The notes under the pieces are model-generated. The model was not told the DNA's origin. It saw nothing but the letters and a program-made list of their open reading frames with translations, and searched no databases. Of a stretch of DNA of 64,000 nucleotides, positions 3,915 through 22,085 are shown piece by piece; positions within the stretch are counted from its first letter, which is position 1, and every line of letters starts with the position of its first letter. A program made the position numbers and the translations under genes. This stretch comes from Escherichia coli O157:H7 (GTDB lineage Bacteria > Pseudomonadota > Gammaproteobacteria > Enterobacterales > Enterobacteriaceae). The stretch is from assembly GCF_013167455.1 (NCBI RefSeq), contig NZ_CP038328.1. The stretch is one strand, 5' to 3'.

Positions 3915-4571
3915 ATGAAACAGCCTGCGCCCGTTTATCAGAGAATTGCGGGTCATCAATGGCGACATATCTGGCTTTCTGGCGATATACACGGTTGTCT
4001 TGAGCAGTTGCGCCGCAAATTATGGCATTGTCGTTTTGATCCGTGGCGAGATTTACTTATCTCAGTGGGAGACGTTATCGATCGTGGGCCGCAAAGTTTA
4101 CGTTGTCTGCAGTTACTGGAACAACATTGGGTTCGTGCGGTAAGAGGCAATCATGAACAGATGGCGATGGATGCGCTGGCATCCCAGCAGATGTCTTTGT
4201 GGTTGATGAATGGCGGCGACTGGTTTATTGCGCTGGCAGATAATCAACAGAAACAAGCGAAAACGGCGCTGGAAAAATGTCAGCATTTGCCCTTTATTCT
4301 TGAAGTACACAGCCGCACCGGCAAACATGTTATTGCTCATGCCGATTATCCAGATGATGTTTATGAATGGCAAAAGGACGTTGATTTGCATCAGGTCTTG
4401 TGGAGCCGCTCGCGATTAAGTGAACGCCAAAAAGGGCAGGGAATTACAGGTGCTGATCATTTCTGGTTTGGTCATACACCGTTGCGCCATCGCGTGGATA
4501 TTGGCAACCTGCATTATATTGATACCGGCGCTGTCTTTGGGGGCGAACTGACTTTCGTGCAATTGCAATAA
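3915..4571 (+). CDS. pphA: Serine/threonine protein phosphatase 1 (metallophosphatase)
   Basis: Motifs GDIHG, GDVIDRG and GNHE in the translation; 218 aa from the second ATG. Confidence 0.9.
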   Translation: MKQPAPVYQRIAGHQWRHIWLSGDIHGCLEQLRRKLWHCRFDPWRDLLISVGDVIDRGPQSLRCLQLLEQHWVRAVRGNHEQMAMDALASQQMSLWLMNGGDWFIALADNQQKQAKTALEKCQHLPFILEVHSRTGKHVIAHADYPDDVYEWQKDVDLHQVLWSRSRLSERQKGQGITGADHFWFGHTPLRHRVDIGNLHYIDTGAVFGGELTFVQLQ

Positions 4572-4763
4572 TTAAAAATCACCATACTCCTGTGCTGGTC
4601 GCCAGAAACCATCTATAAAATCCTCAATCGGAAAACAACCGCCATGACGGATCCGTTGATCGCTCATAGAATAAAGACACTGCTGTTCCGTGTTGTAGAC
4701 ATCCACAACAATATCTTCACAACCGCCATCCAGGTAGCAAACAAAAAGTACCAGCGCGAACAT
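4572..4763 (-). CDS. yebW: Uncharacterized small protein YebW
   Basis: Track ORF trimmed to ATG at 4763 (MFALVLFVCYLDGG..., 63 aa); stop abuts pphA stop. Confidence 0.7.
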   Translation of the reverse strand: MFALVLFVCYLDGGCEDIVVDVYNTEQQCLYSMSDQRIRHGGCFPIEDFIDGFWRPAQEYGDF

Positions 4764-4867
4764 TTCATCCCCGAAGTGTGGTGCCGTACCGTTAAGTTTA
4801 GGAGAGATTTTACAACGGGGGAATAACCAGGACAAATAACCCGCCATGCCGACGGGTTCTTTTTGGA

Positions 4868-5104
4868 TCAGGCAAGACGCATAATCCAGGCATCAGATTG
4901 TTGATCGTAACGGGTACGGTAAAGGACAGAGTGTTCGCCATTTAGCAGGGCAGGGATACTGGTTTCAGCATCCCAGGCATCCAGTTGCATACATAAATCG
5001 GGGTCTGATTTACAAGGAATGGTTAACGTTCGATCACCCGGCGATTCACCGTGTAATTCGCCGTCGTCGATTTCAAAAGCGCCTATGCGCACACTGGTTT
5101 TCAT
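4868..5104 (-). CDS. yebV: Uncharacterized protein YebV
   Basis: Track ORF trimmed to ATG at 5104 (MKTSVRIGAFEIDDGELHGE..., 78 aa). Confidence 0.85.
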   Translation of the reverse strand: MKTSVRIGAFEIDDGELHGESPGDRTLTIPCKSDPDLCMQLDAWDAETSIPALLNGEHSVLYRTRYDQQSDAWIMRLA

Positions 5105-5221
5105 CTTCGTGCTCTCCATTTAGCTGCCGGTTGTGGTACGACCAGTCCGATCGCACCATTTTTCAGCCTAGTTGAGGCCGCCGAATGTGCCAGTCAAAAA
5201 GTGCGCTTTTTTTGTGCGCTG

Positions 5222-6661
5222 TCATGCGTTACTGGTAAAAAGTTTCCCGTCCCGCACCAGTTCACGCGGGTAGCTGTTTTTCAGTCGCGAACCAATCCGT
5301 TTGGCTAAACCAATCGGCTGATGCTGGAAAGTAACCAACACGTCATCCGCCACTGGCGCGGCTTGCGGGTAAACATCGCGCCCGCGATACCACTCCTCCG
5401 CTTCTTGCGGTGTCAGTTCAAAAGCGTTCTCGTTGTCGGGGGAGGCAAGGGCAATAACCGCTTCATGCTGCCAGCGATAACCTTTGTTGTGCGTTTCGGC
5501 AAGTTTAATCCCCAGGCGAGAAAATCGGACTTTACCGATCAGGGCTTCAATGCCTACCGGAAACAACCACACTTCTTTGTCGCGCTGCCAGAGTCGCAGG
5601 TTTCCATCCCAGTTTAAGCCAACACTTGCAGCCGCCTGACGAATTTGTGCGGCTTCGCGATCTTTCACCGGGCTGAACGGGAAATTGCCCACTTTGTATT
5701 TTGGGGTGGGTAAGGCGGGAATGGCCTGAGTTTTACGCAGACGAGCAACGAAGAAGCCTTCGCAGTCGTAAATTTGTGGGAAAACATGCAAAAAGCCTTC
5801 TTCGGTCAGCGCTTTGTTTGCACCAGGGAAGAGATCGCCAAGTGGTAAAAACTCTACTGCGTCGGGGTAAGTCTCTTTAAGCCACAGGCAAACGGATTCG
5901 TTTTCTTCCCGGTTTAAGGTACAGGTCGAGTAAACCAGTGTACCGCCAGAGCGTAATGCATGAAAGGCACTGTCGATCAGTTCCCGTTGGGTAGCTGCGA
6001 TTTCCTGATTGCTTTCTGGTGACCAATTTTTTAGCGCATCGGGATCTTTACGCACCACGCCTTCGCCGGAGCAGGGAGCGTCCAGCAAAATGGCATCGAA
6101 CATTTCTGGCAATGCCGCACCAAACACGCGGCCATCAAAATGTGTGAGCGCAACATTACTGATACCACAGCGGCTGATATTGGCATGTAACACTTTTACC
6201 CGACTGGCGGAAAACTCATTGGCAAGGATTGCCCCTTCGTTATTCATCCGCGCGGCAATTTGCGTCGTTTTGGAGCCTGGCGCAGCAGCGACATCCATCA
6301 CCCGCTGTGGTGCATTACCGTCAGCAAACAAGGCGGCGACGGGCAACATTGAACTGGCTTCCTGAATATAAAACAGGCCACTTAAATGCTCGGCGGTACT
6401 ACCCAATGGCAATGCATCTTCATCGTCGCGTTCAATCCAGAAACCTTCTTCACACCACGGAATTGGCGTAAGCGTCCAGCCATAAGGAGCGGTTAATCGC
6501 AGGAAATCAGCAACGGAGGTTTTCAGCGTATTAACGCGAATGCTGCGGCGCAACGGGCGCTGACAGGCGGCAAGAAAATCATCAAAAGAGAGCGTCGAAG
6601 GCATTGCTTCGCGCATTTGCGTCAGAAAGGCGTCCGGGAAATAAACGGTGTGTTGGGCCAC
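5222..6661 (-). CDS. rsmF: 16S rRNA m5C1407 methyltransferase (NOL1/NOP2/Sun family)
   Basis: SAM-methyltransferase motifs [10 protein letters not shown] and DAPCSGEG; start set at GTG 6661 for the recalled 479 aa (ATG at 6667 is an alternative); track ORF is over-extended upstream. Confidence 0.85.
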
Positions 6662-18337: not shown

Positions 18338-18625
18338 ATGAACGAAGTTGTAAATTCAGGCGTGATGAACATTGCGTCTTTGGTTGTATCGGTGGTGGTT
18401 CTTCTTATCGGGCTCATCTTGTGGTTTTTTATTAATCGTGCCAGTTCTCGGACTAACGAACAGATTGAACTGCTTGAGGCGTTGCTGGATCAGCAAAAAC
18501 GTCAAAATGCACTGTTACGTCGTTTGTGCGAAGCAAACGAACCAGAGAAAGCAGATAAAAAGACTATTGAGAGTCAAAAATCGGTTGAAGACGAAGATAT
18601 TATTCGCCTGGTCGCCGAACGATAA
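18338..18625 (+). CDS. yebO: Small membrane protein YebO
   Basis: 95 aa with one N-terminal TM helix and a charged C-terminal tail. Confidence 0.8.
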   Translation: MNEVVNSGVMNIASLVVSVVVLLIGLILWFFINRASSRTNEQIELLEALLDQQKRQNALLRRLCEANEPEKADKKTIESQKSVEDEDIIRLVAER

Positions 18626-19293
18626 TCCTTCCTCAATCTTGAGTAACCCCGTCGTTGAAGGGTTACTCAATTCATCCTGATTATACGCACTGTCATGGTG
18701 CAACTGCTTCAAATTAAAACTCTGGTCTGACTTCAAATAATTATCATATTATTTATTTGCGTAACGGGATATCAGAAAAAGATATTTACCCCATTAATTT
18801 ATTAGGATGTTTACATCGGATTTGTGATTAAGCGTGGTATTATTTATTAGCGAAACGTTTCTCTCTTGATTTTTTTTGCTTATTCATCAATTTTTCTTAT
18901 TTTAAATTTCCAATTCCTTTGGGATTGACTTCTCTTTGGGGTGATTGAGAGCCGTTAACTGCCTGTTTTATGAGAAAAAGTGATATAACTTTTTATTCAT
19001 TGCATAGCAGAAAATGTGATATTGCACGCACTATGTAATAACTTCTCCCACTGACCTGGAACAACTGAACTTATTGAACTATGTTAGAAACTACGTCAGT
19101 TTAAGTATCTGCGGAACTGACAAGGTTAAGCACAATGATATATCGGCGCGTATTCCGTTGCATAAGTGTGCAAAAAAAGTGGAAGACGTATCGAGATTTG
19201 TGCGTCTGATCGAGACATGTTTAAAAATGGCTTGCCATAATTAACGTTGTATGTGATAACAGATTTCGGGTTAAACGAGGTACAGTTCTGTTT

Positions 19294-19437
19294 ATGTGTG
19301 GCATTTTCAGTAAAGAAGTCCTGAGTAAACACGTTGACGTTGAATACCGCTTCTCTGCCGAGCCTTATATTGGTGCCTCATGCAGTAATGTGTCAGTTTT
19401 ATCTATGTTATGCCTGCGGGCGAAGAAAACAATCTAA
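19294..19437 (+). CDS. yobF: Small protein YobF (47 aa)
   Basis: Read directly: [47 protein letters not shown]; stop 12 nt before cspC start (yobF-cspC operon). Confidence 0.8.
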
Positions 19438-19449
19438 GGAATTTTTCAA

Positions 19450-19659
19450 ATGGCAAAGATTAAAGGTCAGGTTAAGTGGTTCAACGAGTCTAAAGGTTTT
19501 GGCTTCATTACTCCTGCTGATGGCAGCAAAGACGTGTTCGTACACTTCTCCGCTATCCAGGGTAATGGCTTCAAAACTCTGGCTGAAGGTCAGAACGTTG
19601 AGTTCGAAATTCAGGACGGCCAGAAAGGTCCGGCAGCTGTTAACGTAACAGCTATCTGA
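19450..19659 (+). CDS. cspC: Cold-shock-domain protein CspC
   Basis: 69 aa [20 protein letters not shown]... with RNP1/RNP2 motifs. Confidence 0.95.
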
Positions 19660-19703
19660 TCGAATCCACTGATCTGAAGTGTGAATACGCTTCAATCTCG
19701 CTA

Positions 19704-19731
19704 TAAAGCCTCGTCGAATGCGAGGCTTTTT
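19704..19731 (+). terminator. Intrinsic terminator after cspC
   Basis: AAAGCCTCG-TCGAAT-GCGAGGCTTT hairpin followed by T-tract. Confidence 0.7.
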
Positions 19732-19824
19732 ACTATGCTTTATCTTCGCTCCTGGCGTTCGGATATTTGCCCGCCGCGTGATTCGCGTTACACTTGCGGC
19801 CTTTAGTATCCTGCCGGAGTTGTC

Positions 19825-21197: not shown

Positions 21198-21432
21198 GAC
21201 AACGTCCTGACCGGGGTATCCATAAAACACATCATCGCCCCCAGCAAACATGCATACATGAACAACAAGCCGCGATGGGTTTTCGCGTTCATGCAGGCAT
21301 AGCGATTGATGTGCATATGGTCTCGCCTGACTGAAAGTCTTCAGTCCGTACGTGCCACGTTTTGCAACGAGTATGTTGACACGTACATTTCCGGAATCTG
21401 GAAATTGGCTACTCCCCAAATGAGGGCGCAAC
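21198..21432 (-). promoter_or_regulatory. mntP 5' leader containing a yybP-ykoY-class Mn2+ riboswitch
   Basis: Minus strand reads TTTGGGGAGTAGCC (plus 21405-21418) and a downstream GGCGAGACC element, the hallmark conserved loops of this riboswitch class, in the long leader of a Mn exporter. Confidence 0.65.
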
Positions 21433-21626
21433 CTTAACATATTTTGAGAATATAAAACAACTGTTGGAATATATTATTTTATTGCTTTGTTGATAACGAT
21501 TTTCATTTAGATTTATATATCAATGAAACGTTATAATAAATAACAAATAAGGGAAGAGGTAATATAGCCTAAGCTATGTCTGATTATTAAAAATACACTA
21601 AACATAGCTTTGGCTAAATTAATAAC

Positions 21627-22085
21627 TCATTGAGTTGAAACGAGAAGTTTATAAATTCTTTCCAGATCGTCGATATTTCGAACGCGGATTAACAGCCGAC
21701 GCTGTTCTAATTGCATCACCAACACGCCATCTTCCGACAAGTTCATCGCTTTGATTCGGCTATATTCAATCCAGACATTGGCGAAGAAAAAACCTTTTTG
21801 TTTAAAGATGATCTTCGGAACGCGGATCCAGAATATATAAAAACCCATCAGAGCCAGTGCGCTTAATAACCATGTCGTTATTAACGCACCATGATTCGTG
21901 ACGTTGTTATAGATAAGAATGACAATCAATCCGACGAAGATAACGCTATCGATGCGACCACGCCGGAGCAAAGGAATTGCCAGCAGGGTGGGGCCGTTAC
22001 GGCGGGGCATGATGAACTGATCGTAGATCGCGAAGGCCAGGAGTGCGGCGATGAAAAGAATCAGTACCAGGTCCGTGATTGTCAT
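21627..22085 (-). CDS. yobD: UPF0266 inner-membrane protein YobD
   Basis: 152 aa, 3-4 TM helices; K-12 position between mntP and manZ. Confidence 0.85.

Follow-up and report, generated by a model that had tools for sequence, protein, structure and literature searches.

What fills the long stretch between yebO and the yobF-cspC operon in Escherichia coli: promoters, a leader, a small gene or debris? CspC is an RNA chaperone. We analyzed a 64,000-nucleotide stretch of DNA (here called the window, to which all positions refer unless stated otherwise) from E. coli O157:H7, with 100% identity to several O157 genomes, in which the genes are ordered kdgR, yobH, mgrB, yebO (18338-18625), yobF (19294-19437), cspC (19450-19659), rlmA and mntP. 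With the end of yebO at 18625 and the first base of yobF at 19294, the spacer between them (18626-19293) measures 668 bp. A sequence-only reading had described it as an AT-rich region of ca. 670 bp upstream of yobF-cspC, and this was correct: its GC content was 35.5%, versus 49.6% for the whole window, placing it among the lowest 1% of 668-bp windows, and the core (18700-18950) reached 29.9%. The K-12 and O157 RefSeq records annotate no feature inside it. We give a probability of about 80% to the reading that the spacer consists of a multi-promoter control region serving yobF-cspC, together with a short stretch left over from a gene that has been lost.

Composition and variability of the spacer

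The same reading had called the A/T tracts of this region typical of curved, nucleoid-protein-bound DNA. Runs of at least 5 nt were in weak excess (7 versus 3.4 expected from composition; P of ca. 0.04), while those of at least 4 nt stood at expectation (11 versus 10.1), so that the remark on tracts holds only weakly. AA/TT autocorrelation in the spacer at lags of 10 and 11 bp was ≤0.04, i.e., there was no A-tract phasing at ca. 10.5 bp and, thus, no sequence evidence for intrinsic curvature; this part of the description finds no support in A-tract phasing. Binding by H-NS would fit the high A+T content and a single "HNS" flag on the yebO-yobF spacer in the Shimada 2014 table. Overall, the earlier reading of promoters and H-NS was largely right.

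Of the 30 spacer sites that varied among E. coli strains, 13 were located in positions 18876-18975. When a segment of 121 bp (18940-19060) was compared with 5,419 E. coli genomes, 4946 were found in the 95 to 99% identity band and 162 in the 90 to 95% band. Most other E. coli are 3 to 5% off the O157 sequence in this segment, which may be high for core E. coli DNA. The yobF coding region was invariant among the six E. coli strains compared. No Rfam family matched inside 18626-19273 of the window at E values of up to 1, and none matched the spacers of eight other genera at the gathering score.

Conserved islands and a putative gene relic

Eighty Enterobacteriaceae loci were fetched via YebO, and the yebO-to-cspC interval was extracted from 77 of them. 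The interval spanned 600 to 900 bp in 46 loci (Escherichia, Salmonella, Citrobacter, Klebsiella, Raoultella, and some Enterobacter) and 1610 to 1740 bp in the remaining 31, where an ORF of 331 to 341 aa with a metallo-beta-lactamase fold (PF12706; E value, 8e-42) lies directly after yebO, between this gene and yobF. The PF12706 gene is present in Lelliottia, Kosakonia, Leclercia, Phytobacter, Buttiauxella, Cedecea and some Enterobacter and absent from Escherichia, Salmonella, Citrobacter and Klebsiella. Gene-bearing loci retain ca. 520 bp between the PF12706 ORF and yobF, which indicates that yobF was already preceded by a long regulatory region in the ancestral state.

4308-5303 of locus L010 and 4310-5335 of locus L031: examples of the PF12706 gene, with 29 other loci likewise
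18780-18789, no strand assigned: relic ATATTTACCC, likely the 3' end of the lost metallo-beta-lactamase-fold gene

Against the 73 non-Escherichia loci, the sequence could be aligned in all 73 from ca. 19195 on (proximal promoters, leader and yobF). Upstream of this point, only islands were alignable, and the DNA between them is fast evolving. In a 31-genus alignment, the islands were located at 18848-18861, 18884-18903, 18997-19021, 19056-19090 and 19160-19172.

The last codons of the PF12706 ORF read ...CAATATTTATCCCTGTGA (ATATTTATCC). A position-anchored search for the relic 10-mer (≤1 mismatch) 45 to 110 nt upstream of the RbsR-like box described below detected it in 12 of 40 gene-less loci, versus 0.37 expected; in the window it lies at -71 from the box, and the 10-nt relic is also found in Citrobacter. 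A C-terminal remnant of the ORF was visible by tblastn in E. hormaechei, and the same kind of search for a lost-gene remnant in E. coli gave nothing even at E values of up to 10, E. hormaechei being the sole source of clear remnants. Together, the E. hormaechei remnants and the 10-nt relics point to repeated loss of the PF12706 gene and, given that its last codons stand at the expected distance in those gene-less loci, the first quarter of the spacer in E. coli (its 5' part) probably represents the remains of a deletion.

The surroundings of the operon differ among genera on the other side as well. Salmonella, Citrobacter, Klebsiella and others have ca. 2 kb between cspC and rlmA (L084 2086-3144; L006, L007, L012 and many more loci), which in the Salmonella locus contain a gene for a 581-aa penicillin-binding protein (PBP_dimer and Transpeptidase domains); the two genes are adjacent in Escherichia. 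Further along the window, two neighboring features were noted at 21329-21425 (minus strand) and 21550-21631. A manganese riboswitch upstream of mntP scored 40.1 versus an Rfam gathering threshold of 45. Beside it, a stretch of 28 to 29% GC gave weak palindromic matches to microRNA-precursor models on both strands and may form a long AT-rich hairpin.

The 3' end of yebO

18639-18670, plus strand: hairpin after yebO, a perfect 11-bp inverted repeat (I3) with arms TTGAGTAACCC and GGGTTACTCAA

This hairpin, kept in other Escherichia, is followed by AATTCATCC with no U-run, and a simple terminator scan did not call it. SMRT-Cappable-seq has described a "novel" yebO-yobF-cspC unit that begins at the yebO start, with RNA crossing the spacer, and this read-through agrees with a hairpin devoid of a U-run. 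The structure is a leaky 3' end that fails the test for an intrinsic terminator on both grounds, the missing U-run and the reported read-through.

Proximal promoters and the yobF leader

The sequence-only reading had taken the spacer for a promoter region, which was borne out and had already been published as several RNA-polymerase peaks "within 670 bp spacer". Shimada 2014 records multiple RNA-polymerase peaks in the yebO-yobF spacer, RpoS and RpoN holoenzyme SELEX peaks lie inside it, and a sigma-S run-off array yielded a signal from the yebO-yobF spacer probe. A sigma-54 promoter at the RpoN SELEX peak was rejected, the GG-N10-GC arrangement being absent.

19232-19268, plus strand: proximal promoter a, TTGCCA (19232-37), 17 nt, TG-n-GATAAC (19252-60), start G19268
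19212-19246, plus strand: proximal promoter b, GAGACA (19212-17), 18 nt, TG-n-CATAAT (19233-41), start at ca. 19246
19268-19293, plus strand: yobF leader, 26 nt, with Shine-Dalgarno GAGG (19277-80)

For promoter a, the Shimada 2014 table gives TTGCCA-17-GATAAC. SMRT-Cappable-seq found a yobF-cspC unit with start 1907617 and end 1907153 under two conditions, and sigma-S ChIP-seq a peak over yobF with table position 1905641 (old coordinates). Positions 1907617 and 1905641 both correspond to G19268, which follows GATAAC (19255-19260) by 8 nt and precedes the yobF ATG by 26 nt. Thus, according to the published SMRT-Cappable-seq and sigma-S ChIP-seq data, G19268 is the main E. coli start of yobF-cspC, with a 26-nt leader. 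The promoter a motif was found in 73/77 loci, and it passed the sigma-70/sigma-S test (hexamers at 17 ± 1 bp and a start mapped 5 to 9 nt after the -10). Promoter b was found by a promoter scan and is invariant across genera; the 5' UTR insert of the Salmonella yobF::sfgfp fusion begins with GTTGTATGTGATAAC, corresponding to 19246, and from this first cloned base we derive a start ca. 48 nt before yobF.

According to published work, two small RNAs, OxyS and CyaR, pair with this short leader. The Rfam model of the cspA thermoregulator (RF01766) aligned end to end with 19274-19734, over yobF and cspC, with 136.9 bits, and the transcript of the -26 start is therefore a cspA-type mRNA.

The opposite strand of the same DNA carries an antisense ORF (19126-19332, minus strand; 68 aa in E. 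coli) that runs over the proximal promoters and the yobF start. In Lelliottia (L010 5501-5863), it encodes 120 aa with an N-terminal peptide similar to that of E. coli. Most likely, this frame persists only as a by-product of how strongly the nucleotides are conserved here. A sigma-S-dependent run-off signal from a CFT073 gene antisense to cspC and from the spacer probe "-f" has been reported (PMC3141248).

Predicted distal promoter and CRP site

19057-19092, plus strand: distal promoter, -35 TGGAAC (19057-62), 17-nt spacer, -10 TATGTT (19080-85)
19012-19032, no strand assigned: CRP site aaaTGTGAtattgcACGCAct, with its center ca. 69.5 bp upstream of the predicted distal start
19158-19173, no strand assigned: inverted repeat TTGCATAAGTGTGCAA of TGCA-N6-TGCA type, a candidate protein-binding site

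The island at 19056-19090 (CTGGAnnnn..TTGAnCTATGnTA) reads TGGAAC-17-TATGTT in E. coli and TGGAAG-17-TATGGT in Salmonella, with a predicted start at ca. 19092 (K-12, ca. 1907794) and a leader of ca. 202 nt. Its sigma-70 matrix score was 5.8 (the candidates here scored 5 to 7, comparable to validated promoters), and the pattern was present at the homologous place in 68/77 loci, passing the test of conserved hexamers at 17 bp. This promoter was predicted from conservation first, and the yobF-cspC start (SalComMac) given in a paper on Salmonella growing on succinate (PMC10965054), 1893683, then matched it exactly: it maps to A1298 of the Salmonella contig (L084), where TATGGT ends 7 nt earlier and the yobF ATG follows at a distance of 203 nt. 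The coordinate map was built from STsORF60 (1893550-1893642), located at 1339-1431 of that contig, and presupposes identical coordinates for strains 4/74 and SL1344 in this region; it agrees with the three transposon insertions of the paper, of which one is in cspC and the others are in the 5' UTR.

The E. coli SMRT-Cappable-seq tables contain no start at ca. 19092, the -26 start being the sole one for yobF-cspC there, and a single-copy reporter with 200 to 500 bp of upstream DNA reportedly showed no activity under the conditions of one study (PMC11429745). By its sequence, the distal promoter is conserved from Salmonella to E. coli, and it is predicted to be in use in E. coli as well. The long leader that had been proposed from the sequence is documented, at ca. 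200 nt, in Salmonella only; the main E. coli leader has 26 nt. Nothing other than the yebO read-through supports a leader of 670 nt.

A 2026 Footprint-seq preprint (PMC12871828) lists an in vitro CRP site, agTGCGTgcaataTCACAttt, upstream of yobF, and the 21-mer of this published footprint is identical at 19012-19032; yobF is also among the targets of CRP genomic SELEX. The site (TGTGAtattgcACGCA) has 8 of the 10 half-site bases of the TGTGA-N6-TCACA type and passed the CRP-site test. Its center lies 69.5 bp before the distal start, both as predicted in E. coli and as mapped in Salmonella, and CRP bound at ca. -70 would stand at an activating distance for the distal promoter.

The inverted repeat at 19158-19173 lies in the distal leader, ca. 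100 bp upstream of the proximal promoters, with a conservation of 0.8 across 31 genera; GCAT-N6-GC was found at this place in 65/77 loci. A similar motif, GCATAAnTATGCA, occurs at the third island, near 19000, in many genera, so that two copies flank the distal promoter. As for the proteins that might bind such motifs, we compared PhoB, CreB, TorR, KdgR, Fur, IHF, NtrC, ArgR, MarA and CytR with a TGTCAT-N5-TTTCAT repeat and the TGCA-N6-TGCA palindromes. No regulator fitted well enough, the Pho box and CytR half-sites being the nearest.

RbsR-like box and adjoining module

18849-18864, no strand assigned: box AGCGAAACGTTTCTCT, a palindrome like the RbsR operator, predicted site of a LacI-family regulator
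18866-18910, plus strand: module TGCCT..TGAnGCA nTGTCATnAAAnTTTCATTATTTTGGTGCA, degenerate in Escherichia and conserved in other genera

The most conserved of the upstream islands is a box with 15/16 positions identical to the palindrome AGCGAAACGTTTCGCT upstream of rbsD in K-12, which we take to be the RbsR operator (Mauzy and Hermodson 1992); it passed the operator-match test and was the sole match to the rbsD palindrome in the 64-kb window. The box showed no variation in five Escherichia sequences, and its core, CGAAACGTTT, was found in ca. 68/77 loci at 540 to 740 bp (mostly 550 to 620 bp) before cspC, with or without the extra gene between yebO and yobF. Beyond Escherichia, Salmonella and Citrobacter, conservation of its right half is weak, and the ca. 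235 bp to the nearest mapped start is an unusual distance for a LacI-family repressor. It is doubtful that the box is a working operator of RbsR, or of a close LacI-family relative, that would put yobF-cspC under sugar or nucleoside control. If it were, the box might act on the adjacent distal-most promoter or block read-through from the PhoP-driven mgrB-yebO unit. An RbsR operator would also link rbsR and cspC, both of which came out of one Salmonella succinate-growth screen; there, the RbsR and CspC hits were not linked, and the effect of RbsR was attributed to RpoS (PMC10965054).

A 20-nt direct repeat (18747-18766 and 18838-18857; TATTATTTATTTGCGTAACG versus TATTATTTATTAGCGAAACG) with 90% identity and copies 91 bp apart duplicates the left edge of the box; other Escherichia have not kept the upstream one.

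The adjoining module reads TTGAnG-17-CATTAT in other genera, with a sigma-70 matrix score of 6.6 (validated promoters here, 5 to 7), and TTTGCT-17-TATTTT in E. coli, with a score of 5.0 and a shifted -10; the promoter position conserved best lies on the plus strand. No other stretch is as polymorphic among E. coli strains, and the SMRT-Cappable-seq tables list no start site at 18866-18910. The module is a possible most-distal promoter. Other interpretations of the module were rejected. A minus-strand promoter scored lower, with a -10 that Citrobacter and Salmonella do not share; the TGCCT..AGGCA hairpin, whose stem is partly kept, has no adjacent U-run that would make it a terminator. Small ORFs over the module, such as the E. 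coli TTG frame at 18866-18928 (MIFFAYSSIFLILNFQFLWD) and ATG or TTG frames elsewhere, were discarded because of an in-frame stop from TGTCATTAA in several genera and the absence of the frame in other Escherichia.

Proposed organization and alternative explanations

Read from left to right, the spacer would begin with the leaky hairpin that closes yebO, followed by ca. 150 bp left after deletion of an ancestral metallo-beta-lactamase-fold gene. The remaining ca. 450 to 500 bp (ca. 520 bp in gene-bearing genera) would be the regulatory region proper, with sigma-70/sigma-S promoters in the same direction. Two overlapping proximal ones (26 and 48 nt before yobF) make the cspA-like mRNA, a distal one would start ca. 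202 nt before yobF with CRP at ca. -70, as expected for activation, and a candidate further promoter ca. 390 nt upstream would have been kept in other genera and decayed in Escherichia. Conserved protein-binding islands, one of them the RbsR-like box, would lie amid fast-evolving AT-rich DNA of the kind bound by H-NS. The E. coli start at -26, the Salmonella start at -203, CRP binding in vitro, the RNA-polymerase peaks and the yebO read-through are backed by data. Beyond these, we infer that E. coli uses the distal promoter, that CRP activates it, that some regulator has an effect at the RbsR-like box, that there is a fourth promoter and that a gene was lost.

Could the whole spacer instead be one long structured 5' leader, a riboregulator or thermosensor transcribed from a promoter near yebO? 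The read-through from the yebO start does cover the spacer, Salmonella has its 203-nt leader, YobF is regulated post-transcriptionally (PMC11429745 and others), and the distal leader folds slightly better than shuffled sequences (z = -1.8). That z value is weak and uninformative, however, and the main E. coli start leaves only 26 nt before yobF. In addition, the non-island sequence is unalignable between genera, the islands look like DNA sites (hexamers, CRP site and palindromes), no Rfam family lies in the spacer and cspA homology begins only at 19274, all of which makes a spacer-long leader improbable. The opposite extreme, with everything upstream of ca. 19190 being inert, AT-rich debris of gene loss silenced by H-NS and devoid of regulatory role, would account for a spacer that is mostly unalignable between genera, AT rich and flagged for H-NS, that contains the relic of a deleted gene and that shows -26 as its sole start in E. 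coli. Yet gene-bearing genera keep their ca. 520 bp with the same islands in the same order, these islands are conserved in 65 to 68 of 77 loci, one is a promoter mapped in Salmonella and another is a CRP site in vitro, and we consider inert debris to be hardly likely. Narrower in scope, the box and module (18849-18910) might, rather than acting on yobF-cspC, provide the operator and promoter for a small RNA or an antisense transcript that has escaped annotation. The module is promoter-like, E. coli has a terminator-like hairpin at 18911-18927, and the sigma-S run-off signal from the spacer probe "-f" possibly came from the strand opposite yobF. Nevertheless, genera differ in the sequence downstream of the module, other Escherichia lack the hairpin, and with no Rfam match, no listed start site and lower scores for a minus-strand promoter, such a transcript appears quite improbable.

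18970-19038, plus strand: 22-codon ORF, translation MRKSDITFYSLHSRKCDIARTM

This ORF had been singled out from the sequence as lacking a Shine-Dalgarno and being of unclear coding status. The translation was as stated, the 30 nt before its ATG are GGTGATTGAGAGCCGTTAACTGCCTGTTTT, and no AGGAGG-like stretch is present 4 to 15 nt before the ATG at 18970. It might encode a real small protein or act as a regulatory upstream ORF: it starts with ATG, could be carried on read-through RNA from yebO and was intact in six E. coli strains of different lineages, with only two differing sites (one synonymous and one R/K). But intactness within E. coli is expected at low divergence, and the frame was broken in 3/3 other Escherichia lineages, failing the frame-conservation test. 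Two of them have ATG AGA TAA, with a stop at codon 3; in E. albertii the ATG has become ATA, and the genus alignment contains a 1-nt, frameshifting indel. Its nucleotide conservation is explained by the CRP site inside it (19012-19032) and the conserved DNA island beneath, and the ORF lies upstream of all mapped start sites. The peptide is basic and nonhydrophobic and has no Pfam match; the inspected RefSeq E. coli records do not annotate it, the Salmonella small-protein census has no ORF at the homologous place, and it is absent from the 17 Mg-stress-induced small proteins analyzed in PMC11429745. With no Shine-Dalgarno, read-through as the only upstream start, no annotation and no Salmonella counterpart, the ORF is almost certainly a noncoding chance frame across the CRP site, and a coding or regulatory role is very improbable. 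The census (Venturini 2020) does predict another short frame in yobF leader/promoter DNA, STsORF60, a GTG-started ORF of 30 aa in the yobF 5' UTR. However, its frame corresponds to 19166-19240, over the proximal promoters, and not to 18970-19038, and the peptide is not conserved: in E. coli it has 24 aa and is unrelated, so this frame looks noncoding too.

Significance and comparison with known systems

Returning to the multi-promoter control region, its chief value lies in closing the small-ORF and giant-leader ideas, and it provides a base-level map for yobF-cspC in which a CRP site would be placed at an activating distance from a conserved distal promoter. Loss of CspC has been selected repeatedly, in aging colonies, in long-term stationary phase and in Salmonella on succinate (PMC10965054 for Salmonella), and how the operon is switched is thus of some practical interest. 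The RbsR-like box and the second palindrome are cheap targets for mutagenesis, with nothing surprising for specialists, and the box might be the only item worth a small experiment.

The control region is ordinary and already partly described; new from the 77-locus comparison are the RbsR-like box, the degenerate module, the second inverted repeat and the lost-gene relic, the last of these as a probable identification. It resembles the tandem-promoter regions of E. coli stress genes in its long AT-rich spacer with several promoters in the same direction, in the RpoD, RpoS and RpoN holoenzyme peaks and the H-NS flag and in a CRP site ca. 70 bp before the distal start. It differs from them in that the distal start has been mapped in Salmonella only, the DNA between islands is mostly unconserved and the regulators are putative, known from sequence and in vitro data. 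With cspA mRNA, the likeness is that the transcript of the -26 start fits the full RF01766 model; unlike a homolog of the whole region, though, this homology runs from the proximal start on and covers none of the spacer, and the counterpart of the cspA 5' UTR carries here the yobF reading frame. Finally, the box shares with the rbsD operator a 16-bp palindrome around a central CG, the same at 15/16 positions and with an exact left half (AGCGAAAC). The rbsD operator adjoins its coding region, whereas the predicted box precedes a candidate start by ca. 50 bp and the nearest mapped one by ca. 235 bp, and its right half varies between genera (GTTTCTCT, GTTTTGCT and GTTTTTAT).
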